In this document: in pieces, positions 2,492 through 64,000 of the stretch
Layout: each line of letters starts with the position of its first letter
How positions within the stretch are numbered: position 1 is the first letter of the stretch
Sequence record: OQ718158.1
Origin: Escherichia phage vB_Ec-M-J
Strand: one strand, 5' to 3'
Length of the DNA stretch: 64,000 nt
Made by a program: the position numbers and the translations under genes
The notes under the pieces: model-generated
The model's database searches: none
Told to the model about the DNA's origin: nothing
Seen by the model: only the letters and a program-made list of their open reading frames with translations

Positions 2492-2846
2492 ATTGTTTAA
2501 AATTAAATACGTTATGTTATTAATTCAACGATCAGGAATAATATGGAAGAAATACTTAAAAAAACATTACAAGATGTAAGTAAAACTGTAGCAACACAGG
2601 ACGATGCCGTAAAAATCCTTAAAGCTTTTATACAAAATTTGGAACATTGTCGGTATAATTCGAGAATACAATGTTTACACAAATGGTAAATGGTCGGTTG
2701 GTGTAAACTATACAGATCATAAACAAGAAAAAAAGTACTTGTATTGTGTGAATATAGATTGGTTTCCTGTTGATGAGATACTTCAATAAAAGTGTAAGTA
2801 ATAGATAAATAATATAAAGATGTCATTCCATAACAGGAGAATATAA

Positions 2847-5505: not shown

Positions 5506-6522
<1,017 letters not shown>

Positions 6523-6549: not shown

Positions 6550-7083
6550 ATGAATAGATTACAACAAATCCTAACGGATAAAAAACCAGTTTTTGAATAC
6601 CGAGTCAAGTTTGCAGTTGAACCTACCAATGAGCAACTAAGTAAAGTATCACAACGCCTAATGGATCGTTATGATGCATTTGATATTGGTGCACTAAAGA
6701 AAACTATTTTCATGGAAAGACCACTAGATTTTTATGAATTAGATTGTGGTGAAATTTGGATGTTTGATTTCAAATGCCACCGTGGTGTTCAATCAAACGT
6801 ACTAATGTATGAAATTGGCAACCTACTAAGTATGACTGAAGCTCTAATCCGTGTACGTAGTAAAGATGAACCACGTCAACAAGAAATGACCGAACTCGAA
6901 GATGATATTGACTTTGACGATTACGAACCAGTAATTGGTGTTGATTTTGGTAAACCAGAAGACAGCCACGATTTAGCTGGTGAAGAACGTGCTGTAACCG
7001 CAGTTAAAGATGCGATTGAAGCAGTAAAAAGTGACAATAAATACTCTCAATATATGAGTGCTGGTTTTGGTAAAAAGGATTGA
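6550..7083 (+). CDS. hypothetical protein
   Basis: 177-aa ORF with GGAG Shine-Dalgarno, tightly packed in the operon. Confidence 0.7.
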   Translation: MNRLQQILTDKKPVFEYRVKFAVEPTNEQLSKVSQRLMDRYDAFDIGALKKTIFMERPLDFYELDCGEIWMFDFKCHRGVQSNVLMYEIGNLLSMTEALIRVRSKDEPRQQEMTELEDDIDFDDYEPVIGVDFGKPEDSHDLAGEERAVTAVKDAIEAVKSDNKYSQYMSAGFGKKD

Positions 7084-22500: not shown

Positions 22501-25497
22501 GCTTTTTGCAATTTCGATAGTATCATCAGCAGTTGTAATACTACCCACAGTTAGTGTACCGTTTATCGTTGCATTATTATCAACAACCAAACCTTCACCA
22601 ATAGCATTTAACGCAATACTAGTAGCAGTTACTTGAGTAGCTGATACACTCTGTAGTGTGCTATTTCCAGTTGCTTCAATGGTTGCTGCTCTAACCGAAC
22701 CAATTGTTGCATCTGTACTAATTAGTTTTGGTAAAGTACTTGAATTTACTGAATCACTTACTGTGATTACACCAGTACTATTAATGGTTTCAGCACTTGT
22801 TAGTGATTTAACAGTTACGTCAGCAGAACTAAGGTCAACTGTTCCTGATACAACTAAATCACCACCAATATTTGCACCTTCAGTTGTGGTAATTGATTTA
22901 GCATTAATATCAGTTGTTGCTAAGTCAATTGAACCAGGAGTTAAAACACCACTAACAGTTAGGTTACCTGTAATTGTTGTATCATTACTAATTTCAACAC
23001 CACCAGCATTAAAAATAACTGGCGTTTCAACAGAAATAGATTTCACATTACCACTTGCGACGACAGATGCTAATGAAGATGCTCCTGTAATATTTAAAGC
23101 AACACTGTTTGTTGTTGTAGCAGTTATAGTTCCAATACTTGCTTCAGTACTTGATAATTTAGGTAGAACACTAGTACCATTTAGATCATTACTAACGACT
23201 GGACCAGTACTTGTTAGTGATTTAACAGTTACATCTGCCGCACTAAGGTCAACTGTTCCTGATACAACTAAATCACCACCAATATTTGCACCCTCGGATG
23301 TGGCAATTGATTTAGCAGAAACGTCAGTTGTGCTTAGGTCAATTGAACCAGGAGTTACCGAACCACTTACTGTCAAGTTTCCATCAATTAAAGTATTATT
23401 TGTAATAGATACACCTGCTGGGTTAGAAATACTATCAGCTTGAACTACAACAGCAGTAACTTTACCAGAAGAATTTAAGTTAACAACACTAGAATTACCA
23501 CTAACTGTCAAATCTGTAATGGTTGCATCACTAACAGTTGCGTTTGTTGCAGTTAAATCAGTACTTGATAATTTAGGTAGAACACTAGTACCAGTTAGAT
23601 CATTACTAACGACTGGACCAGTACTGGTTAATGATTTAACAGTTACGTCTGCTGCACTCAAATCAACCACACCATCAACAGTTAAGTTACCATTAACAGT
23701 TACACCCTCTGTTACAGTTACAGACTTAGCAGCAACGTCAGTTGTGCTTAGGTCAATTGAACTAGGAGTTAGCGTTCCTTGAATAACAACATCATTTTCA
23801 AATGTGGTATTACCGGAAATTGTTGGCGAAGTTAATGTAGTTGTTGAAATTGAATCTGCACTTACGGAATCTGCACTTATTTCACCCGTTGATGTGATTT
23901 TTGGTGAAGTAATTTCAGTTGATGCTGAAATTGTTGGTGCTGAAACTAAAGTTGTTGCAGATACTGAATTTGAGTTAATAGTATTGGTATTTAGTACATT
24001 ACTAAGAACCATCGAACTACCATTAATTTCACCAGTTACACCAAGAGTTCCACCGATTGACGCATTACCAGTGCTTTCTAAGGTCACTGCTTTCACCAAT
24101 GTTGATGCATTAATCGAATTAGGAGTTAGGTCTTGACCACTTACATCAACAGTTAGGCCAGTTACTACACCAGTAAAGTCAACATCGTTTAAAATAGTCT
24201 TACCACCAACTCTTAGTTGTGGTGTGTTTGGGTCTTGTACCGCATTACCAGTAATTGTTAGGTAATCTAGTTTGTTTAGACCATTACCTGTGATACCGTA
24301 AGTAGCCAAAGATGCGTTACCAAAAGTTGCTGTTTTTAGAACATTTAATGTCGCTGGAGAAACAACTTCAGATTGTATTTCGTTTTGTAGTATTACTGTT
24401 GGACGTAAACCAGTACCAGTATATGCAAACGAAATTCTAGCAGCCGGATCTGCTACGTTTTGTCCTAAACTTACTGCTTTAAGTGTCGCAGTACTATTAA
24501 AACCAGTAATGTTACCACCTAAAGATACAGCACCACCTAATGAAGATGTACCAGAAACATTTAATGTTAGTGCGTTCAAATCATCCAATTGGAATGTACC
24601 ACCTAATGTTCCAGCGATATTAATATCATTAAAGTTTGCAGTACCTGAACTTTCGATATTAGGAATGGTTGCAGTTCCAGTTACTTCAAAATCATGAACT
24701 TTAGTTTTTCCAGATTTTACCTCCAACAATGGTGTTGTTGGGTCTTGAACAGCATTACCTGAAACTGTCAAGTAATCTAGTTTGTTTAGACCATTACCAG
24801 TGATACCATATGTTGAAAGTGATGCGTTACCAAATGATGCAGTAGAAAGAACTGTCAATTTTGCTGGTGACATCAACTCTGATTGAATTTCGTTTTGTAA
24901 TAGTACAGTTGGTCTTTGACCAGGAACAGTATAGCCAAAGTTAAGTCTATACGCTTGACCTGCCGCATCCGGTCCAATACGAACATCACGGAAGTTTGCA
25001 GTACTGTTTATACCAGTAATGTTTGCACCCAACGTAACTGCACCTTGTAGACCAGTAGTCCCAGACACATTAAGTGTTGTAGCATTAATATCAGAAAGAT
25101 TAAAAGTACCACCAAGTGTACCAGAAATGTTTACATCTTTAAAAGTTGCTGTGCCAGTTGAAGTAATATCAGTTGATTCAACAGAATCAAATGATCCTGA
25201 ATTAGCTTCTAAGTTATCAAATTTTGCAGTTGTTCCGACAGCAGCAGTAATGTTTCCTGCAAATGTCGCAGCACCTGAAACATCAGCACCAGCGGATAAG
25301 GTTGCCTTACCAGCAACATCCAATGTACCTGTGACATTCACAGTACCAGCGGTAATTGCAGTGAATACTGCGTTAGCAAAAGACACTTCCCCATTAACCG
25401 TTAGGTCATTACTGAATACTGCATTACCTTTGACCAAAAGATCCTTACCTACCGTGGAATTACCAGATACGTCAAGATCCGTTTTAATCGAGTACAT
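19531..25497 (-). CDS. giant repetitive tail fibre protein (1988 aa)
   Basis: ATG with AGGAGGGG Shine-Dalgarno; T/G/S/V/N-rich with multiple internal tandem repeat modules; paralogous to ORFs 27418-30567 and 25647-27395. Confidence 0.8.
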   Translation of the reverse strand: MYSIKTDLDVSGNSTVGKDLLVKGNAVFSNDLTVNGEVSFANAVFTAITAGTVNVTGTLDVAGKATLSAGADVSGAATFAGNITAAVGTTAKFDNLEANSGSFDSVESTDITSTGTATFKDVNISGTLGGTFNLSDINATTLNVSGTTGLQGAVTLGANITGINSTANFRDVRIGPDAAGQAYRLNFGYTVPGQRPTVLLQNEIQSELMSPAKLTVLSTASFGNASLSTYGITGNGLNKLDYLTVSGNAVQDPTTPLLEVKSGKTKVHDFEVTGTATIPNIESSGTANFNDINIAGTLGGTFQLDDLNALTLNVSGTSSLGGAVSLGGNITGFNSTATLKAVSLGQNVADPAARISFAYTGTGLRPTVILQNEIQSEVVSPATLNVLKTATFGNASLATYGITGNGLNKLDYLTITGNAVQDPNTPQLRVGGKTILNDVDFTGVVTGLTVDVSGQDLTPNSINASTLVKAVTLESTGNASIGGTLGVTGEINGSSMVLSNVLNTNTINSNSVSATTLVSAPTISASTEITSPKITSTGEISADSVSADSISTTTLTSPTISGNTTFENDVVIQGTLTPSSIDLSTTDVAAKSVTVTEGVTVNGNLTVDGVVDLSAADVTVKSLTSTGPVVSNDLTGTSVLPKLSSTDLTATNATVSDATITDLTVSGNSSVVNLNSSGKVTAVVVQADSISNPAGVSITNNTLIDGNLTVSGSVTPGSIDLSTTDVSAKSIATSEGANIGGDLVVSGTVDLSAADVTVKSLTSTGPVVSNDLNGTSVLPKLSSTEASIGTITATTTNSVALNITGASSLASVVASGNVKSISVETPVIFNAGGVEISNDTTITGNLTVSGVLTPGSIDLATTDINAKSITTTEGANIGGDLVVSGTVDLSSADVTVKSLTSAETINSTGVITVSDSVNSSTLPKLISTDATIGSVRAATIEATGNSTLQSVSATQVTATSIALNAIGEGLVVDNNATINGTLTVGSITTADDTIEIAKSTAITGDLAVSGTLTAGIIDLSTTDVTVKSLDSLGNVHVGGDISVDGSIDLSSADITASTLASTGSTTVGGDLVLTTGIVTGSPEISGNLTVNGTSTLVGAVSTSGTVNTAGKVTVATGGVQVVSGGLQLDEGTITAPAASISGNAALNSATVGTTLAVTGQSTFNGGVAASALDISGDSTVQKLTVKGEFIPEGGLNLAGADLVVNSVEAATTLNVIGASTLSSLDAETIDVSGPATIDSLSVTKASVLNGTLNVTGITTLGTVNTGSLSATSVSTNTLSSTGAATLGGTLQVDGLLTASGGVDLSASDVEVKSLSSSTTISSVGTASFGGAITSPSASLTGPGVGLTVNNNATVGGTLSVTGLTNLNGGVSTTTVDVSGDSTFTGDVTVNGTFTPAGGLNLASSDITANSISVATTMHSDGNTTVGGDLGVTGVVSAPSVTLNGSGTALSVTNNATIGGTLDVTGTATAGSIVTSGITSTSGNFSTTLGVTGAATFSDDVTVAGTLTPGSLDLSSTDVVANSISVATTIHSDGNATVGGSLGVTGAISAPSSTFNGTGTGLIVTNNATIGGTLSVTGATTLGSITTAGAVKTGANVVIGTQTGENPETVQIFPNTFIAGSLRVDGGINADIDVSGQTIEPYAIVAEQTIQAASDITSGASLISKAATIGEVGSQNNNLIVNGNVVNNGNFTVTGVLNAQLNQADSDVAVKSLTAANNVAAGTTLSAGTAITAGTSITATGLLKGNTLEVTTTGSFGGLVTMSSGANITGAVTTAGNITVGGNITATGTAGFAATTVSTITTSGLATLASASITGNATVGGALTVNGNVTLGDAAADVLTVNATSSFKENAVFDKAVTVTGELTTTNANLTTTTVTTKKYDVIPTQVTSSVIAPTGTWTPDGTSNVYFITLDQDTTLAPITGLIGGGKAASVYIYVKQDATGNRNFTTDGTYAVVDGELNKTAGSVTIYQVIYDGVSPVTDLFIAQRTA
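22380..23790 (-). repeat. in-frame tandem repeats (~420-nt unit, about three copies) inside the giant fibre gene
   Basis: Near-identical nucleotide blocks around 22800-22940, 23220-23360 and 23630-23770, encoding ...TPSSIDLSTTDV...VDLSAADVTVKSLTS... modules. Confidence 0.7.
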
Positions 25498-25544
25498 AGA
25501 GTCCCCTCCTATAACGATGAACTATATATTCATAACCCATCTTT

Positions 25545-25568
25545 TGTTAATATACTTATATTTAGTTT
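25545..25568 (-). promoter_or_regulatory. late-promoter-like motif AACTAAATATAAGTATATTAACAA (minus strand)
   Basis: 48 nt upstream of ATG 25497; nearly identical 24-mer upstream of ATG 30567. Confidence 0.45.
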
Positions 25569-25597
25569 AATTCACAAAAACACTATTATCTAATACA

Positions 25598-25628
25598 AAA
25601 GAAAAAGCCAACTAAAAAAGTTGGCTTT
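25598..25628 (-). terminator. rho-independent terminator (minus strand) after ORF 25647-27395
   Basis: aaagccaac-taaaaaa-gttggcttt hairpin followed on the minus strand by a T-rich run. Confidence 0.65.
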
Positions 25629-25646
25629 AATTATTAATTTAAAATG

Positions 25647-27395
25647 TTATACACGTTGTGCAACGAAGGTATCAAACACAGTACTGAAACCATCATAGAT
25701 TACTTGGATAATACTTGTTTGACCAACTACAGCACTTACTGTACCAGAAACTACAGAGTATGCACCACCGAAGGTGAAAGTAGTATCAGCAACAGTTGGA
25801 GTTACATAGATATACACTGAACATGCTTGACCACTACCAATTAGACCCGCGATGGAATCCATTGTAACACTTTGGTCAAGAGTTAAGCGATATACGTTAG
25901 TAGTACCATCTGGTGTCCAAGTACCACCTACAGCAGCAGTAGAAGCAGTAACACTAGCAGGGATAACAGAATATTTCTTAGTTACCATGTTGTTTGTAGT
26001 GAAGTTTGCAGTGGTGGTGTTAATAGAACCAGTCACTGTTAGGTTCTTATCAAATGTTGCGTTCTCTTTAAATGTAGATGTTGCATTTACAGTTAAAGTA
26101 TCAGCAGCAGCATCACCAATCACAGTGTTACCATTTGCAGTTAATGTACCACCTACAGTTAGAGCACCAGTTACAGATGCACTTGCAAGGGTAGCTAAAC
26201 CTGATGTTGTAATGGTAGAAACGGTTGTTGCACCGAATCCAGCAGTACCAGTTGCAGAGATATTACCACCTACTGTTAGGTCACCAGCAGTGATACCAAC
26301 AGTACCAGTGATGTTTGCACCACTTGACATAGTTACTGCACCACCAAATGAACCAGTAGTGGTGACTTCTAACGAATTACCTTTTAGTAAGCCTGATGCA
26401 GTGATGGATGTTCCAGCAGTGATTGAAGTACCAGCCGCAACGTTATTAGTTGCAGTTAAAGATTTAACAGCTACATCGGAATCTGCTTGGTTCAATTGTG
26501 CATTTAGTACACCAGTAACGGTGAAGTCACCATTAGTTACTACGTTACCATTAACAGTTAGGTTGTTGTTTTGTGAACCAACATCACCAATTGTTGCAGC
26601 TTTAGAAACGATGGTTGCACCAGAAGTAATGTTACCAACAGCAGATAGTGTTGCAGCAGCTTCAATTGCATATGGTTCTAGTGTTTGACCACTTACGTCG
26701 ATTTCAGCGTTAATACCACCGATTACACGCAATTTACCAGCAATATAAGTATCTGGAATGATCTGTACAGTTTCAGGTTGTTCACCAACTGGAGTACCAA
26801 CAGTTAGGGTTGTACCAGTTTTCACTGCACCAGTAGCTGTTAGTGAAGATACAGTAGTTGCACCAGTAACACCTAGAGTTCCAGTTACACCCAAATTACC
26901 ACCAACTGATGCGTTTGCAGTAGAAGTTAAACTTCCAACAGTTGCTAGACCAGATGCAGTCACAGTAGAAGTACTAACACCACCACTTAGAGTACTTAGG
27001 CCAGTTGCATTGATAGTTGTCGCAGTAGTTAGACTATTAGCAGTAATGTCTGCACCGCTTAGGTCAAGACCACCTTGTGGGATCAATTCACCTTGGACAG
27101 TTAGTTTCTGAACAGTACTGTCACCAGAAACTGTTAGTGATGTCGCAGATACACCTGCTAGAGTAGAAGCACCAGTTACACCTAAAGTTCCAGTAATGGA
27201 AGTTCCTGCTAGAGTAGAAGCACCAGAAACGTTAATTGTGTTAGTATTGATACCACCATCAACTACCTGAATACCACCAGTACTCACTGTTACTTTCTTA
27301 CCGATATTAACAATATCAGTTAGGTTAACAGCACCAGTTACACCAAGAGTTCCACCGATTGTTGTATTACCAGAGATAGCTGGGCTACCAGTCAC
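25647..27395 (-). CDS. C-terminal part of the second tail-fibre paralog (frameshift-split)
   Basis: Track start is GTG without a Shine-Dalgarno. The frame is open upstream to a TAG at 27435-27437 and encodes QVVGTDLVLTTGVVTGSPAISG, collinear with the middle of the 1988-aa fibre. The whole 582 aa aligns with the C-terminal ~580 aa of that fibre. Confidence 0.7.
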   Translation of the reverse strand: MTGSPAISGNTTIGGTLGVTGAVNLTDIVNIGKKVTVSTGGIQVVDGGINTNTINVSGASTLAGTSITGTLGVTGASTLAGVSATSLTVSGDSTVQKLTVQGELIPQGGLDLSGADITANSLTTATTINATGLSTLSGGVSTSTVTASGLATVGSLTSTANASVGGNLGVTGTLGVTGATTVSSLTATGAVKTGTTLTVGTPVGEQPETVQIIPDTYIAGKLRVIGGINAEIDVSGQTLEPYAIEAAATLSAVGNITSGATIVSKAATIGDVGSQNNNLTVNGNVVTNGDFTVTGVLNAQLNQADSDVAVKSLTATNNVAAGTSITAGTSITASGLLKGNSLEVTTTGSFGGAVTMSSGANITGTVGITAGDLTVGGNISATGTAGFGATTVSTITTSGLATLASASVTGALTVGGTLTANGNTVIGDAAADTLTVNATSTFKENATFDKNLTVTGSINTTTANFTTNNMVTKKYSVIPASVTASTAAVGGTWTPDGTTNVYRLTLDQSVTMDSIAGLIGSGQACSVYIYVTPTVADTTFTFGGAYSVVSGTVSAVVGQTSIIQVIYDGFSTVFDTFVAQRV

Positions 27396-27417
27396 AACAC
27401 CAGTTGTTAGTACTAGA

Positions 27418-30400
27418 TCAGTACCAACAACTTGCTAGACTTGCAGCTACAAGGTTAGTTGCACTTAAGTCGAATGCACCATCTACAGTTAGGTTACCAG
27501 CAATGTGTGCGTTACCTAGTGAATCAAGAGATTTAACGGTTACATCAGTATTGCTTAGGTCGATTGAACCAGCAGTTAGTGTGCCAGATACAGCTAAATC
27601 ACCAGTGATTGCAGTATTTTTTGCAATATTAAGAGAAGCAGCAGTTGTTGTTAAAGAACCAACAGTTGCAATGCCACCAACAGATAATGCACCACCAACG
27701 TTTGCATCATTATCAACTTGAAGACCAAGGCCACCACCAGAAAATTCAGCACTATTAGCAGTTACTTGAGTAGCTGATACACTTTGTAGTACACTGTTGC
27801 CAGTTGCATTAATAGTACCTGCATTTACTGTAAAGAGTGTTGCATCAGTTGAAGTAATTTTAGGTAACGAACTAGTATTGGTTGAATCGGTAACGGTAAT
27901 AACACCAGCACTTGTAATTGTCTCTGCACTTGCAAGAGATTTCACAGACACATCAGCAGCACTTAGGTCAAAAGTACCATCAACTACTAAGTTTCCACCA
28001 ACATTAACATCAGCAGTAGTAGTTAGTGAGTTTGCAGTAATATCAACAGTTGTTAGATCAAGACCACCTTCAGGTTTGAATACACCAGTGACAGTTAGAT
28101 CTTTTGCCGCGACAACATTACTTGCTAGATTTAGTGTACCAGCACCAGCAGCTTCAGCTTGTAAAGTTGGAACTGTTACAGAAGTTGTGATTGTTGCAGT
28201 ACCAGAAGACAAACGCGAACCAGATACTACACCAGTACTAGTTAGTGTTCCTACTTTCGCTGCACCAGTAGTAGTTAGTGTGCCACCTGAAACGTCACCA
28301 GTTGCGGCAACAGAAGATGCATTAATTACACCAAATGTACTTGGGTTAGTTGCACTAACTGATTTTGTTACTACATCAGCAGCAGACAAATCAATAGCAC
28401 CAGTTACTGCAAGAGAACCACCAACAGTTACGTTACCAGTAGTTGTTAAAGAAGCAGCACTTACATCAGTAGTGCTTAAATCTATACTACTCGGAGTTAG
28501 TGTTCCAGTAATAGTTACGTTATTAGCAAAAGTAGTGTCACCAGTAATACTTGGAACAGTTAGTGAAGCCATAGAGCCAGCACCAGTTACTGCAAGAGAA
28601 CCACCAGATAGTGCACCAGCCGCAGTTACTGTATTACCAGATACAGACGCACCAGTAACATCACCAGTACTGGTTACTGAACTAGCAGTTAGGCCAGCTA
28701 AAGTAGTGTCCCCAGCAACAGATAGTGTTGTTGTAACATCAACTTTATTTGGGGCGATATCAAGACCATCAACATCAGCTTGGGCAGTTACACCAGTAGT
28801 TGTACCAGTTACTACTAAATCACGTACAGTTACAGTTTGACCAGTAACGCTAACATCACCACTGAAAGTACCTTTAGCAGCACTTACATCACCAGTGAAG
28901 GTAGCAGCAGTACCAGTTAGTGCACCAACAACATTAGCAGTTCCACCAACTTGTAGGTTAGTTCCTACTGTGGTTTGACCAACTGATTCAAGGGTTTGAC
29001 CTTTGATTGCTTCAGCAGCATCTACTGATTTAGGAGTTAGATCTTGTCCACTCACATCAACAGTTAGACCAGTTACAGTACCAGTGAATTCAACATCATT
29101 TAGTACTGATTTACCAGCAACTTGTAGTTGTGGGGTAGCTGGACTTTGTGTACCATTACCAGTAATAGATAGATAATCTAGTTTGTTTAGACCGTTACCT
29201 GTGATACCATAGGTTGCAAGAGATGCATCACCAAAGGTTGCAGTTTTTTGTACATTAAGTACTGCTGGAGATACTAGCTCAGACTGAATTTCATTTTGTA
29301 GAATTACAGTTGGACGTGCACCAGGGGCAGAATAAGCAAAACCATACTTAACGTTAGCATCGGCGGCGTTTTGTCCTAAACTTACTGCTTTAAAATTAGC
29401 AGTACTATTAGCACCGGAAATATCAGCACCTAAAGTTACACCACCAACAAGGCTAGTTAAACCGGATACAGTTAGTGTGTTTGCTTCAATATCATCAAGA
29501 CTGAAAGTACCACCGAGTGTACCAGATACGTTGATGTTATTAAAATTAGCAGTACCAGTACTTTCAATGTTAGGAATAGTTGCAGTTCCTGTTACTTCGA
29601 AATCATGAACTTTAGTTTTACCTGAAGTTACTTGTAATAGTGGAGTTGTTGGATCTTGAACAGAGTTACCAGATACTGTTAGGTAATCTAGTTTGTTTAG
29701 ACCATTACCAGTAATACCAAAAGTGGATAGTGACGAATCACCAAAAGATGCAGTTTTCAATACACTTAGGGTAGCTGGAGACATCAATTCTGATTGGATT
29801 TCGTTCTGTAGAATTACAGTTGGACGAAGACTTGGAGCAGAATAGTTAAAGCTCAAACGGTAGTTAGTGTTTGCAGCATTGGAACCAATTTTAATATCAC
29901 GGAAGTTTGCACTACTATTCACACCAGTAATGTTGGAACCTAATGTAACACCACCTTGTAGACTGGTTAAACCAGAAACAGTTAGAGTTGTTGCATTAAC
30001 ATCAGATAGACTAAATGTTCCACCTAGTGTACCGGAAATATTCACATCTTTAAAGTTTGCAGTTCCAGTTGATGTGATATCAGTAGTTGCAGTGTTTGTG
30101 AATGTTGCATCAGTTGCAGTTATTTTGTCAAATGCTGCGGTAGTGCCAGTTTCAGCAGTAATATTACCTTTAAATGAAGAAGTTCCAAGAACATCCATTG
30201 ATGCCACTTGGGTATCTTTTAGTACAGCAGTGCCAGCGGTTTGTGTTAGGTTACCTGCCATTGATACTGGGCTTTGGAATTGTGCATTAGAATTAATCGT
30301 TGCAGTATCAGAACCAACAGGCAAATTACCAATTACGGAATTACCATGAACTTCAATTCCACCATTCAATGATGCTTTACCAGCAACATCTAGTGTAGAT

Positions 30401-30567
30401 GAAATGTCTACAGTTTCTGCTTCAATTGCAGTGAATACAGCGTCAGCAAAAGTTACAGTTCCATTAACTGTTAGATTTTTATTGAATACTGCATCACCTT
30501 TCACAAGAAGATCTTTAGCAACCGTTGCACCACCAGTTATATCGAGATCTGTTTTAATCGAGTACAT
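27418..30567 (-). CDS. N-terminal part of the second tail-fibre paralog (1049 aa)
   Basis: ATG with GGAGGG Shine-Dalgarno; N-terminus MYSIKTDLD... matches the 1988-aa fibre. Ends ...SLASCWY* exactly where the homolog continues ...LASTGSTTVGG... Confidence 0.8.
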   Translation of the reverse strand: MYSIKTDLDITGGATVAKDLLVKGDAVFNKNLTVNGTVTFADAVFTAIEAETVDISSTLDVAGKASLNGGIEVHGNSVIGNLPVGSDTATINSNAQFQSPVSMAGNLTQTAGTAVLKDTQVASMDVLGTSSFKGNITAETGTTAAFDKITATDATFTNTATTDITSTGTANFKDVNISGTLGGTFSLSDVNATTLTVSGLTSLQGGVTLGSNITGVNSSANFRDIKIGSNAANTNYRLSFNYSAPSLRPTVILQNEIQSELMSPATLSVLKTASFGDSSLSTFGITGNGLNKLDYLTVSGNSVQDPTTPLLQVTSGKTKVHDFEVTGTATIPNIESTGTANFNNINVSGTLGGTFSLDDIEANTLTVSGLTSLVGGVTLGADISGANSTANFKAVSLGQNAADANVKYGFAYSAPGARPTVILQNEIQSELVSPAVLNVQKTATFGDASLATYGITGNGLNKLDYLSITGNGTQSPATPQLQVAGKSVLNDVEFTGTVTGLTVDVSGQDLTPKSVDAAEAIKGQTLESVGQTTVGTNLQVGGTANVVGALTGTAATFTGDVSAAKGTFSGDVSVTGQTVTVRDLVVTGTTTGVTAQADVDGLDIAPNKVDVTTTLSVAGDTTLAGLTASSVTSTGDVTGASVSGNTVTAAGALSGGSLAVTGAGSMASLTVPSITGDTTFANNVTITGTLTPSSIDLSTTDVSAASLTTTGNVTVGGSLAVTGAIDLSAADVVTKSVSATNPSTFGVINASSVAATGDVSGGTLTTTGAAKVGTLTSTGVVSGSRLSSGTATITTSVTVPTLQAEAAGAGTLNLASNVVAAKDLTVTGVFKPEGGLDLTTVDITANSLTTTADVNVGGNLVVDGTFDLSAADVSVKSLASAETITSAGVITVTDSTNTSSLPKITSTDATLFTVNAGTINATGNSVLQSVSATQVTANSAEFSGGGLGLQVDNDANVGGALSVGGIATVGSLTTTAASLNIAKNTAITGDLAVSGTLTAGSIDLSNTDVTVKSLDSLGNAHIAGNLTVDGAFDLSATNLVAASLASCWY

Positions 30568-30611
30568 TTAGTTCCCTCCAAATAGGCAAAAAGCATAAAA
30601 TACATTTGACC

Positions 30612-30635
30612 TTGTTAATATACATATATTTAGTT
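30612..30635 (-). promoter_or_regulatory. late-promoter-like motif AACTAAATATATGTATATTAACAA (minus strand)
   Basis: 45 nt upstream of ATG 30567. Confidence 0.45.
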
Positions 30636-30649
30636 ATTGATATAAAAAA

Positions 30650-30676
30650 TCCAGACTAGATGAATCATAGTCTGGA
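30650..30676. terminator. rho-independent terminator, bidirectional by sequence
   Basis: tccagacta-gatgaatca-tagtctgga hairpin flanked by an A-run and a T-run; lies just after the stop of ORF 30686-31585. Confidence 0.7.
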
Positions 30677-30685
30677 CTATTTTTT

Positions 30686-31599: not shown

Positions 31600-32655
31600 T
31601 TAAGATAGGGTGATATATGTTATTGGTTGAGCAGCTTTCAATAATGCCCCTGCTGCGGTAGCAGTAACAATCGGATCGGCAATATCGATACGATACGCAT
31701 TATTAACAACATAAACTGCTCTAGTGATATATGTTTTTAAATCTTCGCCATTTTCCCCTGCTCCTGTGATTAGGATTTCGGTTCCAGCAGCTTTAGCATA
31801 TTGATTATCACCCCATGATACACCCAATGCTTCGATATAAGTTTGTCCTGCAACTGTTTGTCTAATTGTGTCATATCGACCAAAGAAAGAACCACCTACT
31901 GTAACAATAAATTTTCCACCTGATTGTTTATGGATAATTGTTCCTGCTGGGAAATATCTCCCACCAGGAAAAACATCATAAGGCACGTAATACTGTTCAA
32001 CTACAGGTATTACTACAGGTCCACGATGACCCGTTCCATCAATTGCAGTGGTTACTTTAAAGTTATTAGATGATTGGTCAATACGGTCAACATACATTCT
32101 TGAGAAACTATATTTTGATATGTTACAATCATCTTGAACAACACAATTAGTCCAGTTGGTATATGTATATTTAGAGCGAGTATATAAGCCCCCTCCTTCA
32201 CCTTCAGTTGCAAGGTGTTGTCCAATAACATCAAGTTCTTTAGTACTGATATTATTAAACTTGGAAGATGACGGCAATCCACGCCATTGAATTCTACTAC
32301 ATGTAATATTAGAAAGTTCAGTAGTATTTAGCCAATTATCAGAGCCTGAAGTATACACAATAATAGACGACTCAGGAATGTGGAGATTACATAATTTAAA
32401 GTTTCGTGGAGGACCAGCAAATTTACCAGATGTTACGCCCCAGTTAATAGAAACCATACGGTTAGTTACTGATGGATCATTTAATAGATGCCCAGATAGG
32501 CCATCAATAATAAAATCAACAGAACCATAAGTAATTACACCAGCGGTTGTCAAACCAGTACCAATTGATACCAACGTTGATGGATAAACTTCATTATTGA
32601 GAATTTTAAAGTCTTTACCCAACTCAACGTGAATACATTGACGGACATTGTACAA
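31600..32655 (-). CDS. probable C-terminal continuation of the tailspike/depolymerase (frameshift-split at an A8 run)
   Basis: Track start is TTG without a Shine-Dalgarno; frame open upstream into the A8 run (plus-strand T8 at 32677-32684); beta-rich composition. Confidence 0.6.
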   Translation of the reverse strand: MYNVRQCIHVELGKDFKILNNEVYPSTLVSIGTGLTTAGVITYGSVDFIIDGLSGHLLNDPSVTNRMVSINWGVTSGKFAGPPRNFKLCNLHIPESSIIVYTSGSDNWLNTTELSNITCSRIQWRGLPSSSKFNNISTKELDVIGQHLATEGEGGGLYTRSKYTYTNWTNCVVQDDCNISKYSFSRMYVDRIDQSSNNFKVTTAIDGTGHRGPVVIPVVEQYYVPYDVFPGGRYFPAGTIIHKQSGGKFIVTVGGSFFGRYDTIRQTVAGQTYIEALGVSWGDNQYAKAAGTEILITGAGENGEDLKTYITRAVYVVNNAYRIDIADPIVTATAAGALLKAAQPITYITLS

Positions 32656-32659
32656 GCGG

Positions 32660-33742
32660 TTATTTTTTATAACGAATTTTTTTTACATATTGTGAATCAT
32701 CAGCATTCACATCATAAGGACCAGAACCTGCAACACCGATACCAATACCCCAGTTTGAAAGAGGAATTGGTGCATTTGTACCATCTACGTTTTCAATCAA
32801 GTTACCTTCTATTACAAATCCGTCTGGGTAATGTGAGTTGACTACGTTCAATTCAATTGCATCACCATATATATCATGGATGTGGTTGTATGAATAACGC
32901 CCAACGGTCATTTTCTCACCAGTGCCTTGCTGAAGAACACCGTACTTACATTGTGTCATTTCATTAAAGCAGAAGTCGATAGTACCTGATTCAGTCATAC
33001 CTTGCATTAGAAATGCAGCAGTACTTGTAATATTAATAAATTTATTAAAATAAAATTTACCATTACCACCAAAGAATTTTAAATAACATCCTGTTAATGT
33101 TGCTTGTTGGATTGTACTATTCAGTACCGATACCATTGTGCCACCGTTACCAGTGATTGTACCACCAAACCATTGAATATCATTCAAATAAACAGCAGTT
33201 CTGATACGATAATTACCACCAGCTTGAATTTGGATTTTGTGTTCTTTAGCATAAACTGCACATGCGTTAACCGCCGCCGTGTCATCAGTGATGCCATCAC
33301 CTTTTGCACCAAACTCTTCTGGAGTTATGTAAAACTGTGCCTGTTGAAGTGTTCCTCCAGTAATAAGTCCGATATAATCAGCACCGTTAACACTGGAAAG
33401 GACATTTTTATTAATGTATAATGATTTTACCCAAACATCATTTGTTTTTGCAAAGATATCAACAATACCCTCAGAATCAACTTGAAAATAAGTGTTGTTA
33501 TTTTTACCAATGTCATTTGTTGGTGGAAGTACGCCAAATAAAGCATTTGGGTTATCTTCAAGATACCTAACGTTTACTGCGGAATCATCGTCATTAGGAG
33601 TTCCCACCTTAACAGGTAGGAACGTTTCGCCTAAAAAGTCTTTGATTGCGACAGAATCGTTTACAAAATTAATAGAAGCACCACGTTTACCCAACTTGAA
33701 TGTTGGCATCATGGTCCCTTCTAAATTGGAAAAAACTGCCAT
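32660..33742 (-). CDS. tailspike N-terminal part: shared anchor plus pectate-lyase-superfamily depolymerase motif
   Basis: ATG with AGAGGG Shine-Dalgarno; N-terminus MAVFSNLEGTMMPTF... shared with ORF 30686-31585; EEFGAKGDGITDDTAAVNA is the signature start of right-handed beta-helix pectate-lyase-type depolymerases; ends in the A-run ...YVKKIRYKK*. Confidence 0.75.
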   Translation of the reverse strand: MAVFSNLEGTMMPTFKLGKRGASINFVNDSVAIKDFLGETFLPVKVGTPNDDDSAVNVRYLEDNPNALFGVLPPTNDIGKNNNTYFQVDSEGIVDIFAKTNDVWVKSLYINKNVLSSVNGADYIGLITGGTLQQAQFYITPEEFGAKGDGITDDTAAVNACAVYAKEHKIQIQAGGNYRIRTAVYLNDIQWFGGTITGNGGTMVSVLNSTIQQATLTGCYLKFFGGNGKFYFNKFINITSTAAFLMQGMTESGTIDFCFNEMTQCKYGVLQQGTGEKMTVGRYSYNHIHDIYGDAIELNVVNSHYPDGFVIEGNLIENVDGTNAPIPLSNWGIGIGVAGSGPYDVNADDSQYVKKIRYKK

Positions 33743-33756: not shown

Positions 33757-34884
33757 TTAAATGTTATCTTGAATAGGCTGAATAGGTGCTTGCCATGATA
33801 AAGTACAAACGATCTTCATTTCACCAAATGAACTGTTGTTTACGGAATCATTGAATACACAAGAAATGATTTCATCTTTACTTGATACTTCGTGGTTGGT
33901 TTCGTTAACAATGTAACGCATTTTGCGGTTGATATCGAAATAATCAACAGGTGCAATTACAGTACCACCAATATCTTCTTGTGCTTCACCACCGAAACGT
34001 ACAAACATTTCATTTACTGGTTCATCATATGCTTGGTTAATATCAACTTCGATATTAGTTACTAGGTATCCAGCAGGGCATGTACCAATAACTAACAATG
34101 CGTTAGTCCATGAATGATCAATAGTGTTGATGATAACAACTGTATCTTTACCTGGTTCACCCTGAATACCTTGTTCACCTTGCTTACCTTCTTCACCGTC
34201 TTTTCCACGGAATAAGATACCAGCACTCCACTCTTTAGTTGGGGTTGATGATGTAGTTACGATATCGACATAATACAAATTACCATCTGTCGTGTTATAG
34301 AAGCAATAATCTTGTGGTAGATTATCAATGCTTGGGAATTGACTACCAGTACTATCAATATGGAAACGACCACGTAGACCTTGTTCACCACGGAAAGGAA
34401 TACCATCACTCCATGTTGCAGTTACGCTTTGATAGAAATATAATTTACCATCTTCAGTATTATAGAATGTGTAATTATTGAAAAGACCAGTTGTTGGAAA
34501 CACCGTACCAGAACTGTCAATGTGGAATGGTTTACCAGTTTCACCAGTATCGCCTTTACCAAACTCTACACGGTTCCAAGTACTAATTGCTTCTTGTGCA
34601 TCGTTTGATTTAAAATATAAAGTACTAGTGCCATTTGCAAGACTAAGATAACACCACCCTAGTTCTTCACCAACACGGAAGAGTTCATTAGGAACTTCAA
34701 AACCTATCTCATTTGGATAAAAGTTTCTACCGTTAGCACCATTTTGTCCAACCACTAGACCTAGGTCTTGGATTGTATTGTCGGAATAGGTTACAATTAA
34801 ATGTCCAGCAGCGTTAATAACTAAACTTTTGATGCCAGAATTATTACATGAACCACCTGACCCATTGTTGAATGAAATTGTCAT
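33757..34884 (-). CDS. tail fibre-like protein with a short collagen-like Gly-X-Y segment
   Basis: Track start 34920 is TTG and would cover the promoter-like motif; ATG 34884 has an AAGGGA Shine-Dalgarno. Contains GKDGEEGKQGEQGIQGEPGKD and duplicated ...LYFYQSV...W..GI.FRG.QG modules. Confidence 0.65.
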   Translation of the reverse strand: MTISFNNGSGGSCNNSGIKSLVINAAGHLIVTYSDNTIQDLGLVVGQNGANGRNFYPNEIGFEVPNELFRVGEELGWCYLSLANGTSTLYFKSNDAQEAISTWNRVEFGKGDTGETGKPFHIDSSGTVFPTTGLFNNYTFYNTEDGKLYFYQSVTATWSDGIPFRGEQGLRGRFHIDSTGSQFPSIDNLPQDYCFYNTTDGNLYYVDIVTTSSTPTKEWSAGILFRGKDGEEGKQGEQGIQGEPGKDTVVIINTIDHSWTNALLVIGTCPAGYLVTNIEVDINQAYDEPVNEMFVRFGGEAQEDIGGTVIAPVDYFDINRKMRYIVNETNHEVSSKDEIISCVFNDSVNNSSFGEMKIVCTLSWQAPIQPIQDNI

Positions 34885-34907: not shown

Positions 34908-34930
34908 TGTCATATACCAATATTTATCAG
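34908..34930 (-). promoter_or_regulatory. late-promoter-like motif TAAATATtgGTATATGAC (minus strand)
   Basis: About 24 nt upstream of ATG 34884. Confidence 0.35.
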
Positions 34931-34993
34931 TACAAAATACATTTCGTTGCCATTAATAAATAAATGAAAGTTCACTACTAAAAGGGCTTAACA

Positions 34994-40568: not shown

Positions 40569-40610
40569 GTTTGTCTCCAAAATAAATCGGGTATATCTTT
40601 ATTTACCTTG

Positions 40611-40638
40611 TTGACAAACGCAAAGAATGTGATATAAT
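40611..40638 (+). promoter_or_regulatory. strong sigma70-type promoter (TTGACA-N16-TGaTATAAT), third copy of the P1/P2 family
   Basis: Exact -35 at 40611-40616 and -10 at 40633-40638 with conserved gaatgtgaTATAATG context. Confidence 0.75.
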
Positions 40639-51900: not shown

Positions 51901-53000
51901 TCATACAATTGGAATTGTGGAAATACGTTCACAGAAGTTTTAGACTGTGCTTGAATCCAATGAGAACCGTCCCAATACATGGAACTGTTACCAAATTCAT
52001 TACCTTTGATAATAAGAACTACGTCACCATCTTGTGGTTCACCACTCGGACGGCTTTCAGATTCTTCGTCTGGGTCTAATGCTAGACCATACACACGTGT
52101 TCCATCTTGCATACGTTTAACATATACTTTATAAATTCGGTTGTTTTCACCATTGTTACCAATACTGGTGAAAAGAATACGCATACCATCTTGTGGAATA
52201 ATACCATCAATACGTATACCGCTGTTAATATCTTTTTGTACGATATCTTCAGGTTTAATAATATCAGAGAACAAATCAACTGTCCCACGGAATTTAGTAC
52301 CGTAGTTCATTAGTTCGATATTTTTATTGTATTCGATAATTGGTGCACGAGCACGAACAAAACGGGAATCTTGCATTAGTTCTTCAGTTAGGATAGTACC
52401 ATCTTCTAAAGTTTCACCTAATGTGTACCAGAAGTTTTGTAGTGACCAAGTGTTACCATTTTCTGCACCACGTTCCATTACAATATAATCTGGAGTTGTG
52501 ATATTATAGCTATTCTTGGAATCCCATAGGTATGAACTGTAGTTGTTCATTTTATTTGGGTTAATTGGTGGGGTCCATGAATAGAACTTACCATTAAACA
52601 AACGGCTTTCATTTTCGGTTAGTGCACCGTAATGATTCATATAGCCAACTAGATCATCATAAAATTGAATTGAACGAATGCTGGAGTTATCATTTCTTGA
52701 GACATACGCAGTGGACAACTGATATAGTTGACGTGCGACTGTTGACTCGTGTAAGAAGATGTTCCCTGCTGCTGCCGGAGAACCCATGTCACCAATGTAG
52801 CCGTCAACTAATTCGTTTTCAGCCGGATTAAACCATTGTTGGATAACATCATCACTGACTTTCTGAATATCTTCTAAGCCTTGCATCCACTCAGGCAATC
52901 TTTTTATGAAAAGCTTCTTCTGTACTGCTTCAGCCATCTGTGTAGGTTGAAACTTAAAATTATTAGTCATTTTTGGACTCCATATAATTCGTTCATTCAT
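42999..53000 (-). CDS. giant virion protein (3333 aa); probable baseplate/fibre protein in the gp7 position
   Basis: Uninterrupted 10-kb ORF directly downstream of gp25-like and gp6-like genes; Y/N/W/T-rich beta-type composition. ATG 53000 lacks a Shine-Dalgarno; in-frame ATG 52970 has GGAG. Confidence 0.75.
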   Translation of the reverse strand: MNERIIWSPKMTNNFKFQPTQMAEAVQKKLFIKRLPEWMQGLEDIQKVSDDVIQQWFNPAENELVDGYIGDMGSPAAAGNIFLHESTVARQLYQLSTAYVSRNDNSSIRSIQFYDDLVGYMNHYGALTENESRLFNGKFYSWTPPINPNKMNNYSSYLWDSKNSYNITTPDYIVMERGAENGNTWSLQNFWYTLGETLEDGTILTEELMQDSRFVRARAPIIEYNKNIELMNYGTKFRGTVDLFSDIIKPEDIVQKDINSGIRIDGIIPQDGMRILFTSIGNNGENNRIYKVYVKRMQDGTRVYGLALDPDEESESRPSGEPQDGDVVLIIKGNEFGNSSMYWDGSHWIQAQSKTSVNVFPQFQLYDRNGVKLNNTTTYPSSTFTGSSLFGFKINYNYATDSVYGYNIELGDYNYYTYENFLQSTRYTYEHLGVEVEIDGLYYYNVIGEGNTMNLETDWVRSTEYSKQYVKQTPQVERTVMFRVFSTVYDMESFKDPVEGMYAYVIEVDRTYQYYKAERETYLDWHVIVGDGVQSVKYNHTFELAQKVLDNSDDIIELVVDGVEIKEYTKTVVNNQVQSITIDSSVDLDEDSVVQIRTYSSTITPNKELGAYEVPINLQNNPYNSNIEYINQGDYTLHFQDIIQKNITSGSADDFNNYEERLAAGLVNNGVGTKIIQNEASMLPLMAHTANEDIDLFESIMFMQAEYFRFINKFNTQMLRLYEEDPSAFLGNSASNIVDAILTAINMGRDSTFPFYYDNVASTAGFIRAFVPPTPQFLGILQAYTPQKATFLTAGSKSSCYNISHTGIISKAYRVINGVDKMDDVVFELENRIFNSIDLTFKDIDYKPVLNSEDLFPTPYFTGTDYSAEEKKTLLLRGYINFTATNGISNSTHDYDANNWRTWNYTGSYYVVDGQRTEIPARGSWRAIYTDQYGTYRPATHPWEMMGFSQRPTWWNQEYEPTAVQVGEREGDVVYVYEALVMNENGDLVPSGLWDIDGTIGDSSTGTILSGERRGQYDKYKRFGVQPFKITKTGEKTSTGIDICEVEYIAPEVLGLVSGNLDHRAEPWSYGDMGDMEFTYMNTAMFAYDQMLLLYKAKPAQFANYYWDTRNDNLKPVYTDGSQFLYGETRKRLNFDSTTLVHGEKNTRTIGYQMFVSDYLMYQNKNITTKYGDVVRSSYVNVAHKIGGFTKADQLTFTAKSFGLISQENQTIGLVRSNNIRDEQMSAVKITWNGSAYQIDGYDLVGAKFKYKIPVKNGRKVTLKLEDRTVVHYNEWKSEGTLEYGKIFNTYQEVYTFICGYGEYLKEHGWIFEDVNDSGTQQDWTTIAKDFVIWSQNNLSTGEFISCTPSAANAKFGADFGSVQSVTQNSGGVWSLLDDENQGIRQYEIETSRIGNVFTVRTTTESQKRMALIRLSLSSYEHAVVFDDKTIFGDYIYQPTYGAIQELIKMYGYITGSWTGRLQAPGFIILEAGTLPSFEKLVTDFELYYNSETPVSDVQLQELSNHLIGYQTRDYLQRMISSDVSRVDFYKGFIHDKGTNQVMEKVLRVSKSYDTDEYKALQEWAFKIGTYGNINGKKNLQFKLINDQFKQQPQMVSFDVNATSNGTGNGIVYYGEQGVDSRWITRPNGKFSFPMRSGRSENIQLPDIGPVTLDEISYVTKDFSTAYNDRINYMNNSGEIPDSVWMFKDGNDLWNIFELVDTEVEMLSIVPIENTDVYAEQFCKVTLSDDIPLNDGDYYYFVDETNFMPDTLTIESQYYTAGNDPRVMVVPFDTSITIDFTDPDTRPRLYRYVSRFSTEEMRQEYIDRKYSFKAPQSTLFDRPTTYDERTNITALYLNVFDPINGVIPGAAMQNVTYTSPVDPAQYNSNGELIQAWGADKVGQVWWNTSTAFYLDYTRAIYDADGNVDVDATNEYKRYNWGRLLPHSTVDVLEWVCSPVEPYNWDKYCKDVANKNKNNTMYLPSGTALEDNYSTFLEYDSTTDTYVTKYYFWVRDTIYVPPLHSRTKSCTDIARIIKEPAQLNIPWFAPINESSFILSNMQFEVNDDTSILTVSYYMDNTEVIKHDQYQLCKEGDSYNFNPSIWTSMWNSMIGQETTESGTVIDLLYPLVPNGLGSNKTWFQDVIEARRNFVESANNYYRSQNITTNTVLMDEVFNVKTTEVNPNEVSYRVLTYNSELVIAPESDKFKENDAVLVSTSGVLPNPLSTSSVYFVHIDANGYIHLMNSPSSAGSVVTITLENRGEGQQKMIKQSDYVEALGTSLDMTQYWSLADWYDIGYDKNTAYTQESSLEDANTKNYQVGDIIRITDVDGIWTLYIKAQSRDSVYWKAIGRENSTVELNDMLYADYTVRDANGSLSNREINVRKALALLKNSFDLHQSEIVFDMVKYVHVEQSVVDWVFKTSYIYIVGLEQSLVQNYSNDNLINQIVEYFEEVKPYRTKIRSQIEQKTSDDDLIKGLCNDLDPNGYIFADGTWVKTEKDIWDYEYAQFNEVTQRWEQVGELPSDFVTPNRRFQEIDVIMHYDNTQCKPNDNLASVDVLEEVNKKYQSNAQDVVSNFELQRYKYTFPEYSDEDFDLLVAYQMQLYYPELNVTLGIAYGVNQWYADHADDLVATAEFTETLNRVYKESTQNEMFNDVNHYVQYNTLSNRLKLYTGADDEVIHDEVGCGFSGLTYDDNPSTRLPFGYASSTDYNFGYFEVSSELYKKYVSLIKENNTTATDDEVRIILEVEYGVYSYRHVDEDGNQRFYNDAIHVLSGMRGLYDKDATDHYEKAEEILSRMPIDIHAFTMMPRKYVYVNVNGVYESIPDDQSIDDFMEDKFITDGQLVQLAEINLDDLPLDRNNPMYSDYQHILDSITDAKYYDDMNAFDNLALESQTSELKWEVEGDEVDPYIIDISDINPSGRKIGQIRFTVDGYGFNSVSLVQLRDNSRYKTEGMVIINPYKTTEAIVSIPSYAKIENDISKSYSKYDEKYFYKIKSIVSDTEAEVIDNTLSDGDKVMIFTTDGEDYVRYQNNAWETILSVSKIKTDTTPTLYTVRNTANGTVELLDSTGVVLRYDNITKQQQNEPAIPLALNIVRIRTFSDPEFLVDGVKLYETNRNYAIDAMNYEVFYDTTLYGGSYNDGITPDDVDVWVVSNEIFEVDGVTIDNGYNLPITGAGVLSELVRTKMTDSVEINVFEYDVGIIQPVLNAEGVWEYAYPLVSDTYIGVVGGTVTNITAISEENTTYVSQPDSVSPYSVTNNVLSGAGASMNDIISLGFEKVEVRFANNLLCGVMYSAEHDFKENVTYSFNGLNLGKVNLLKRYSVNSYPIELSVYSDSLQISGTDIKNLLEVK

Positions 53001-53017
53001 TTGATTTATTTATGATA

Positions 53018-56512: not shown

Positions 56513-56583
56513 AATTTATTCCTTTAAATCAGTAAAGTACTAGTTCAGTACTGGGAATTATATATAGAAATATTTATCCAAAA

Positions 56584-63541: not shown

Positions 63542-63586
63542 CTTTTTGATTCTCCATAAGAAGGGAACATTTGATGTATTTATACG

Positions 63587-63628
63587 TGGGACAAAGACGT
63601 TTTTGGTGCTATAATAACATTGATGGTA
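63587..63628 (+). promoter_or_regulatory. sigma70-like promoter (GGGACA-N16-TGcTATAAT)
   Basis: Same architecture as the promoter at 14122-14149. Confidence 0.45.
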
Positions 63629-63672: not shown

Positions 63673-64000
63673 ATGACAAATAGGCCGAAGCGTAAAAAGT
63701 ATCTTAACAATGCTGATTTACTTCGTGAGATACAAAAAAGTAAAATCTCATATTGCTGGTTACTTGATAAGTGCTACAGTATGTACGATTATATCGTTTT
63801 TGATGAATCCGAAATCACAGCAGAACTTTTAGATAAAGCTAAAGCAGCACGTATTAAACGTCTCAACAATGAAATGCTTGATGCAATTCGTGAAAAAGAA
63901 GGTATGAGTGCGAAGAAAGCGAAGGAATACGCAGATGAGCACAATTTAGTACTAACTGATGTACCTATCGATGAGGTGGTTATTCGTGTAATTACCGATG
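63673..64000 (+). CDS. possible late sigma factor (T4 gp55-like); 3' end outside the window
   Basis: ATG 63673 with GGAGA Shine-Dalgarno; open to the window end. N-terminus MTNRPKRKKYLNNADLLREIQ resembles the gp55 N-terminus (...KPKYNYVNNKELLQAII..., recalled from memory). Confidence 0.4.
   Translation, partial: MTNRPKRKKYLNNADLLREIQKSKISYCWLLDKCYSMYDYIVFDESEITAELLDKAKAARIKRLNNEMLDAIREKEGMSAKKAKEYADEHNLVLTDVPIDEVVIRVITD

Follow-up and report, generated by a model that had tools for sequence, protein, structure and literature searches.

Genes and predicted promoters in the window

We analyzed 64,000 nucleotides (nt) of Escherichia phage vB_Ec-M-J (OQ718158.1), hereafter the window, for a short element upstream of its virion genes, TAAATA followed by a looser TATA half-site, which is likely to be a late promoter of the phage T4 type. 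Identity over the fiber region is 99% with Escherichia phage Ecwhy_1 (MH791411, Asteriusvirus) and about 73% with phage 121Q; judged by sequence, the source of the window is a 121Q/RaK2-like jumbo coliphage of the genus Asteriusvirus. The window corresponds to about 118.5 to 182.5 kb of Ecwhy_1 in reverse orientation and carries genes for the tail sheath, tube paralogs, fibers, baseplate, and other proteins labeled "structural protein," with nonvirion genes (ATPase, hydrolase, thymidylate synthase, MutT, ClpA-like) interspersed among them. The predicted promoters are listed below, with the orthologs in phage CBB and the scores from a position weight matrix (PWM) where these apply.

2805..2822 (+): predicted late promoter of tail tube paralog A (2847-3533; ortholog of CBB Porf_205); ATAAATAATATAAAGATG; 14.3 bits
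3582..3597 (+): predicted late promoter of tail tube paralog B (3623-4399; ortholog of CBB Porf_206); CTAAATAAAGTATAAT
6516-6521 and 9141-9146 (+): weaker intragenic candidates
7037..7058 (+): candidate late promoter inside a gene, 49 nt before structural gene 7087-7632; AATAAATACTCTCAATATATGA; 13.0 bits
18615..18636 (-): predicted late promoter of structural gene 16631-18595 (Ecwhy1_210; ortholog of CBB Porf_224), 3' of a terminator; AATAAATACTTAATATATAATC
25544..25567 (-): predicted late promoter of giant fiber gene 19531-25497 (Ecwhy1_208 ortholog); AACTAAATATAAGTATATTAACAA
30612..30635 (-): predicted late promoter of the second giant fiber gene (27418-30567 plus 25647-27395), TAAATA at 30632-30627; AACTAAATATATGTATATTAACAA
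34908..34930 (-): predicted late promoter of structural gene 33757-34884 (Ecwhy1_204 / 121Q_574); CTGATAAATATTGGTATATGACA; 13.6 bits
34956..34972 (+): candidate late promoter of structural gene 34994-35491 (Ecwhy1_203), without a TATA element; AATAAATAAATGAAAG
40589..40606 (-): predicted late promoter of structural gene 39072-40568 (Ecwhy1_198); GTAAATAAAGATATACCC
52997..53013 (-): predicted late promoter of the giant virion gene of 3,300 amino acids (aa) (42999 to about 52970); CATAAATAAATCAAATG
56558..56577 (-): predicted late promoter of the baseplate wedge (gp6-like) gene 53051-56512; GATAAATATTTCTATATATA; 13.5 bits
57521..57555 (-): two tandem TAAATA cores (57554-57549 and 57537-57532) before the baseplate lysozyme gene 57026-57514, the second a perfect T4 TATAAATA
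63566..63583 (-): predicted late promoter of structural gene 62810-63541 (Ecwhy1_189); TATAAATACATCAAATG

A first-pass annotation of the window had described the motif 24 to 48 nt upstream of four structural genes, namely tube paralog B, the two giant fibers, and gene 33757-34884. Reading the sequence directly, we found all four sites as described, and the distances are correct when counted from the 3' end of the motif to the start codon. The 24-mers of the two fiber genes, which had been called nearly identical, agree at 23 of 24 positions once a 1-nt register slip in that annotation is corrected, while their flanks and their leaders up to the Shine-Dalgarno sequence are unrelated. The weaker variants that it placed upstream of 2847 and 53000 are likewise real (GATAAATAATATAAAG and CATAAATAAATCAA, respectively). 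Equivalent sites absent from it are the TAAATA copies at 18635(-), 34957(+), 40605(-), 56576(-), 57537/57554(-), and 63582(-), along with further intragenic cores at 6516, 7038, and 9141(+).

At the first fiber site, TAAATA occupies 25564-25559, TATA starts 4 nt later, and the T of TAAATA lies 67 nt from the ATG. The tube B site (3583-3597(+), TAAATAAAGTATAAT) has a half-site spacing one base below that of the other three sites first described. Many sites lie within about 25 nt of an upstream terminator hairpin: hairpin 3552-3578 stands directly 5' of the tube B promoter, 18673-18650 precedes the site of gene 16631-18595, and 25628-25604 precedes the first fiber promoter. The candidate at 34956..34972(+) is divergent from the promoter at 34908-34930(-). 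The true start codon of the giant virion gene is at about 52970 according to the 121Q and Ecwhy_1 annotations, and the 121Q ortholog of the gp6-like wedge gene has the variant TAAATT in place of TAAATA.

Anatomy of the motif

The motif was dissected in a set of 34 virion-gene sites. The conserved unit is (A/C)TAAATA followed by a looser TATA/YATA element that starts 3 to 5 nt later. The proposed consensus TAAATA-N2-GTATA therefore holds in part: its TAAATA core is constant, but GTATA occurs in only 7 of the 34 sites and its G is not conserved. Relative to TAAATA, 22 sites have A and 7 have C at position -1, and the information content stays below 0.35 bit at every position from -20 to -2, which agrees with the earlier statement that no -35 element is present. 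The 20 nt downstream of the box are 76% A+T, and the T of TAAATA lies 23 to 93 nt from the start codon (median, 41).

TATA at an offset of 3 to 5 nt was found in 17 of the 34 sites, against 1.9 in shuffled sequence. The same arrangement was seen at none of the 17 TAAATA copies before nonvirion genes and at 4 of 83 other copies. When the spacing of T4 promoters is applied, position +1 is an A in 25 of the 34 sites, preceded by T/A and then by T. We examined the late region of T4 itself for comparison, and among its 24 (T/A)ATAAATA sites, A is at +1 in 16 and T at -2 in 14, with TATA at offset 3 to 5 in 6 (1.06 expected). The resemblance to T4 late-promoter logic that had been suggested for the four sites is supported, at the level of sequence, by both spacing and downstream base profile.

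TAAATA is concentrated upstream of virion genes and depleted elsewhere

Genome-scale tests were performed on positions 1 to 285 kb (80%) of the 354 kb of Ecwhy_1, which we assembled, some counts being made on 235 kb of it. Starts of nonvirion genes were taken from a greedy open reading frame (ORF) caller. Within the window, exact TAAATATNNGTATA occurs 3 times against 0.05 expected, and TAAATA-N4-TATA occurs 6 times against 0.49 expected, with 5 of the 6 before virion genes; neither count was reached in any of 100 shuffles.

The core hexamer itself is scarce. The window contains 34 copies of TAAATA where 85.9±10 are expected, and depletion is 2.5- to 6-fold genome-wide. In 235 kb of Ecwhy_1, coding regions hold 59 copies in sense (194 expected) and 21 in antisense (129 expected), with 57 more copies within the noncoding 6% of the sequence. 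A 50-kb block of Ecwhy_1 without virion genes has 10 + 7 (17) copies against 55 + 50 (105) expected. TAAATA ranks 27th to 28th of 2786 hexamers in depletion under an order-2 Markov model; the more depleted words are all restriction-type palindromes, words with GATC, or one of a few others that contain G/C. Codon constraint was considered as a cause of the depletion and rejected, since TAAATA supplies a stop codon in one sense frame only and the antisense strand is the most depleted.

The copies that remain are not scattered evenly. Sixteen of the 34 window copies lie 23 to 67 nt upstream of 15 virion genes and are co-oriented with them; these 16 fall within the 1.7% of strand positions that are 20 to 70 nt upstream of gene starts (p=8e-20). 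Counted by gene, 15 of 29 virion genes in the window have the motif upstream and none of 13 other genes do (p=0.001). A single TAAATA copy in the window is antisense within a gene. In 235 kb of Ecwhy_1, 33/59 virion genes against 22/262 others have a sense TAAATA no more than 100 nt upstream (p=6e-15), and a reverse-orientation control over the same sequence was flat (6/59 versus 8/262). Extending the count to 285 kb gave 33/59 virion or morphogenesis genes and 26/377 others (odds ratio, 17; p=7e-18). The genome-wide enrichment upstream of virion genes that the first-pass annotation had left to be checked is therefore present, together with avoidance elsewhere. An unbiased k-mer count over all upstream gaps ranked TATAAT (in the context TGATATAAT) and (A)TAAATA(A) among the commonest, strongly orientation-biased words. 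Ecwhy1_16, an isolated plus-strand structural gene within a minus-strand early block, has its own ATAAATA.

Conservation across genera and duplication of the predicted fiber promoter

Footprinting was done against RaK2 (Alcyoneusvirus) and CBB (Mimasvirus), whose proteins are only about 60 to 75% identical and whose flanks have diverged. The intergenic regions of 121Q are mostly more than 90% identical to the window and so had no footprinting value except at the fiber gene. Baseplate-wedge homologs from IMG/VR (L008-L014, 28 to 39% identity) were tried and found uninformative, as they come from other phage groups and their genes are mostly embedded in operons.

Ecwhy_1/121Q, RaK2, and CBB all have an unchanged TAAATA in front of five genes: sheath, tube A, tube B, neck, and structural-210. 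In a five-phage alignment at tube B the sole invariant block is GCTAAATA, and at the sheath gene the invariant parts are AATAAATAA..TATACGA and the Shine-Dalgarno sequence. The offset of TATA is specific to the gene and is maintained across genera.

The sheath mRNA leader (Ecwhy_1 L002 32476-32571, just outside window position 1) also opens, immediately after the predicted start, with a small hairpin that is conserved (CGAATATAATTCG in Ecwhy_1, CGAATATTCG in CBB, and CGAGAATAATCG in RaK2). AATCCT is invariant upstream of the sheath promoter.

Giant fiber genes number one in 121Q and two, in tandem, in the present phage and in Ecwhy_1 (window 25647-30685). The extra copy has its own promoter 24-mer, Shine-Dalgarno sequence, and first codons. 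The block at 25544..25567 is kept in the 121Q ortholog, in which the leader has diverged; the 121Q promoter, CTAAATATATACATATTAACAAGG, agrees with both window copies, and the leaders differ in sequence and length. Because the single 121Q fiber gene has the same block while the leaders differ, sequence comparison points to inheritance (paralogy) plus selection as the source of the 24-mer identity.

Two genes in this region are interrupted relative to Ecwhy_1. The proximal giant fiber gene (25647-30567, -) is split into two ORFs (1049 + 582 aa) at about 27429 because it lacks 14 nt (ACTGGTTCTACTAC) that are present in Ecwhy_1, where one gene encodes all 1644 aa; there are only 13 mismatches elsewhere. 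The colanic-acid-degrading (depolymerase-like) gene 31600-33742(-) forms two ORFs through a frameshift at 32677-32684, where one extra A in a poly-A tract (A8 versus A7) is the sole difference from Ecwhy_1; the extra base could reflect either an error in sequencing or a tract prone to slippage. A full TAAATA-N4-TATA match, TAAATATACATATA at 32160-32173(-), falls within the depolymerase-like gene, with the next gene start 588 nt downstream; it may act as an internal late promoter or have arisen by chance.

A gp55-family sigma factor at the end of the window

The first-pass annotation had noted a possible gp55-like sigma factor at the end of the window. Protein comparisons (PHROG, tblastn, BLASTP) identify it as a genuine gp55 homolog, and its gene adjoins the SbcD/SbcC genes.

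63587..63615 (+): candidate middle-type promoter of the sigma gene, TGGGAC-N14-TGCTATAAT, spotted by eye
63673..64000 (+): gp55-family late sigma factor, first 109 codons; the core (residues 142-248) lies past the window end

The full protein has 279 aa in EC.P1, where it is 100% identical, and in Ecwhy_1. It matched the PHROG family phrog_234, "late sigma transcription factor" (E=1e-16), and tblastn retrieved annotated gp55 genes of the cyanophages S-PM2, P-HM1, and S-RSM4 (E=1e-8 to 1e-6). It is 76% identical to the late sigma of CBB. BLASTP aligned residues 142-248 with residues 23-134 of T4 gp55 (25% identity over 121 aa, E=2e-4), and by eye the first helix is alike in the two proteins (KYLNNADLLREIQKSK in the sigma and NYVNNKELLQAIIDWK in gp55), followed by about 118 extra residues before the conserved core. 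Pfam and PDB sequence searches with this protein gave no match. The window does not contain the exact middle-promoter pattern of CBB, TGAAAC-N17-21-TATAAT. The phage does have a gp44-like clamp loader, as the analysis confirmed.

At two places a predicted late promoter on the minus strand stands back to back with the -35 element of a plus-strand early or middle promoter (40600-40638 and 63577-63615). The gap from TAAATA is 5 nt to the TTGACA of the ClpA-like gene (promoter 40611-40638) and 4 nt to the TGGGAC of the sigma gene. These pairs may represent a divergent early/late switch architecture.

Probable late promoters of the T4 type

We consider it likely that the TAAATA…TATA sites of this 121Q/RaK2-like jumbo phage are T4-type late promoters read by its gp55-like sigma factor. 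TAAATA would occupy positions -11 to -6, as in the T4 element TATAAATA, and would be recognized by the gp55-family sigma bound to the host RNA polymerase core. The second half-site, (G/C/A)TATA 3 to 5 nt after TAAATA, would form the AT-rich melting segment containing the start site, with transcription starting at an A about 6 nt after TAAATA. Because the late sites of T4 show the same downstream profile, the TATA half-site would be a property common to T4-type late promoters, belonging to the melting/initiation region. Expression may proceed as a cascade, from sigma70-type early promoters to middle promoters, one of which would drive the sigma gene itself, and then through the gp55-like sigma to the TAAATA promoters of the virion genes. 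Because such a signal is so short, the genome would have been purged of TAAATA elsewhere, most of all on the antisense strands.

Several observations weigh against this interpretation. Composite patterns with 2 mismatches allowed were not enriched (18 versus 18.7 and 38 versus 55), and the motif is low in information content: the fixed-spacing PWM, trained outside the window region, was weakly discriminating, with 29 matches of at least 8 bits against 19 in random sequence. Because loose matches and the PWM discriminate poorly, our reading rests on three properties, namely the exact core, where it lies, and how well it is conserved; the significance comes from the first two and not from loose matches. 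The motif is missing from 26 of the 59 virion genes, which are presumably operon-internal, and TAAATA stands upstream of 22 nonvirion genes, in some cases inside the spacers of sigma70-type promoters. Genes were classed as virion genes from a GenBank record that is marked "UNVERIFIED" and was annotated through homology to 121Q. Of T4 TATAAATA, the first two bases are not conserved in the 34 sites. The literature searched gave no transcript 5' ends, expression timing, or in vitro transcription for this phage group.

The remaining objections concern the activation machinery. By eye, the sigma is without the C-terminal clamp-binding tail of T4 gp55 (SLDFLYEAND), and therefore the mechanism of activation may differ from that of T4. 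A PHROG scan of 10 proteins near the clamp-loader gene gave no sliding clamp (gp45) or gp33, and the authors of the CBB genome paper, who described a gp55-like sigma in that phage, did not detect gp33 or gp45 homologs (PMC5259590). One version of T4-type late transcription, in which the clade uses a clamp- and gp33-independent variant and the enlarged gp55 makes a second, sequence-specific contact with TATA, seems to us doubtful. If true, the promoter would be bipartite, consisting of TAAATA and an initiator-like TATA, and coupling to replication would not be needed. With its much larger gp55 and apparently no gp33/gp45, the clade offers a natural test of the necessity of the sliding clamp.

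Alternative explanations

A quite improbable alternative is that TAAATA…TATA serves another late regulator (an activator or repressor, such as a DsbA-like AT-binding protein) or acts in the RNA leader as a processing or stability signal. T4 DsbA binds AT-rich sites overlapping late promoters (PMC2988020), the two fiber copies keep an extra block, TATTAACAA, beyond the general motif, and the conserved hairpin of the sheath leader lies just downstream. The distance from motif to start codon, however, varies from 23 to 93 nt, and the strong depletion on antisense strands fits avoidance of spurious initiation rather than an RNA signal. A binding site for some other regulator would also leave the short terminator-to-gene gaps with no other candidate promoter, whereas the phage encodes a dedicated gp55-family sigma, and the targets of gp55 in T4 share both the core and the downstream profile.

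The downstream (G)TATAAT/TATATT could instead be an ordinary -10 box for host sigma70 or for a phage RpoD-like sigma (Ecwhy1_4 class), TAAATA then being an upstream AT-rich element (extended or UP-like) at about -17 to -22. These phages do encode an RpoD-like sigma, good -10 hexamers exist at some sites (TATAAT at 3590-3595, TATATT at both fiber promoters), and a sigma70 consensus scan gave 9/12 matches overlapping both fiber sites. Sigma70-type and late sites are also alike in being AT-rich and intergenic, and some late sites have a TATAAT-like hexamer. We nevertheless regard this explanation as very improbable. The phage's own sigma70-type early promoters are near consensus (TTGACA-N17-TATAAT), with a clear -35 and a TGnTATAAT -10, unlike the 34 late sites, which have no -35 information. 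They precede nonvirion genes only, e.g., the ATPase at 11261 and the ClpA-like gene at 40653, and in 235 kb of Ecwhy_1, TTGAC-N16-19-TAnAAT was found before 0/59 virion genes and 22/262 others. Half of the virion sites are without TATA at offset 3 to 5, yet TAAATA is invariant across genera; the would-be -8 and -7 positions of the -10 hexamer are not conserved; and sigma70-like matches in the fiber region are below chance (30 versus 53). Where the leader is shortest (the ATG 23 or 28 nt away), a downstream -10 box would place the start, about 7 nt further on, level with the Shine-Dalgarno sequence or past it.

That the similarity reflects only chance AT-richness plus a recent duplication of the fiber gene and its upstream region, without function, has in its favor that loose matches are at chance level, that the paralogous genes behind the two 24-mers begin with identical coding sequence, and that 121Q has a single such fiber gene, but it is effectively refuted already by enrichment and conservation, as no shuffle reached the counts of the exact patterns, the hexamer, although strongly depleted over the genome, is concentrated before virion genes, the motif is kept across three genera within otherwise diverged intergenic DNA, and conservation between the fiber copies is confined to the 24-mer, the Shine-Dalgarno sequence, and the start of the coding region.

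Other features of the window

The 316-nt gap at 10945-11260, before the N4 gp24-like ATPase gene, contains a pair of strong sigma70-type promoters that are nearly identical and lie 92 nt apart (10970-10997 and 11062-11089), as well as one more GCTATAAT; the gap yielded neither an ORF nor an Rfam family. An Rfam search of the whole window gave no match.

Six palindromes, CAGCTG, CCATGG, CGTACG, CTGCAG, GCATGC, and GGTACC, are absent from the 285 kb of Ecwhy_1, where 68 to 127 of each are expected. In the window they occur 0, 0, 0, 1, 0, and 0 times, respectively. GATC-containing words are depleted 3- to 4-fold. The pattern looks like strong avoidance of restriction sites.

Comparison with known systems

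In the literature searched, we found no promoter analysis for Asteriusvirus, and the papers on PA5oct, Sharanji, fEgEco12, and RaK2 report no late promoter. The closest precedent is phage CBB, in which MEME found ATAAATA, followed by an AT-rich segment, upstream of structural genes at 35 sites; the motif is also reported for GAP32 (Buttimer et al. 2017, PMC5259590, citing Abbasifar et al. 2014). Its authors likened the motif to T4 TATAAATA. This "promoter 3" of CBB and GAP32 has the same core as our sites and the same position before structural genes, and Table S7 of the CBB study lists orthologous promoters for Porf_201 (neck), 204 (sheath), 205 (tube A), 206 (tube B), and 224. CBB has the same three promoter classes, and its middle-type "promoter 2" (TGAAAC-N14-TGnTATAAT), whose format the site before our sigma gene shares, also precedes the CBB gp55-like gene. 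The CBB/GAP32 prediction rests on MEME only and concerns another genus than Asteriusvirus. Because the motif had already been predicted in these sister genera, the discovery is incremental; what is new here is the genome-wide depletion, the discrete TATA at offset 3 to 5, and the match to the downstream profile of T4. For 121Q-like jumbo coliphages, which are under development for therapy, the sites suggest a rule for annotating late units, (A/C)TAAATA 25 to 70 nt upstream, often just after a terminator.

In T4, the late promoter consists of TATAAATA (-13 to -6) followed by an AT-rich stretch, and a -35 element is lacking (PMC2988020). The sites described here share with it the TAAATA core, the missing -35, the AT-rich downstream segment, the profile around the predicted +1 (T at -2, T/A at -1, A at +1), occurrence on both strands, and a gp55-homologous sigma; the sigma gene lies near SbcC/SbcD, as T4 gene 55 lies near genes 46 and 47. 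They differ in that the TA at -13/-12 is replaced by a weak A/G and then A/C, giving a 7-bp core, and in that the TATA element is present in 50% of sites versus 25% in T4. The sigma factors differ as well, with 279 aa versus 185 aa, an insertion of about 118 aa after the first helix, and no T4-like C-terminal clamp-binding tail. The logic of the T4 late promoter, including the base profile around the start, would appear to be retained in a distant jumbo-phage lineage.

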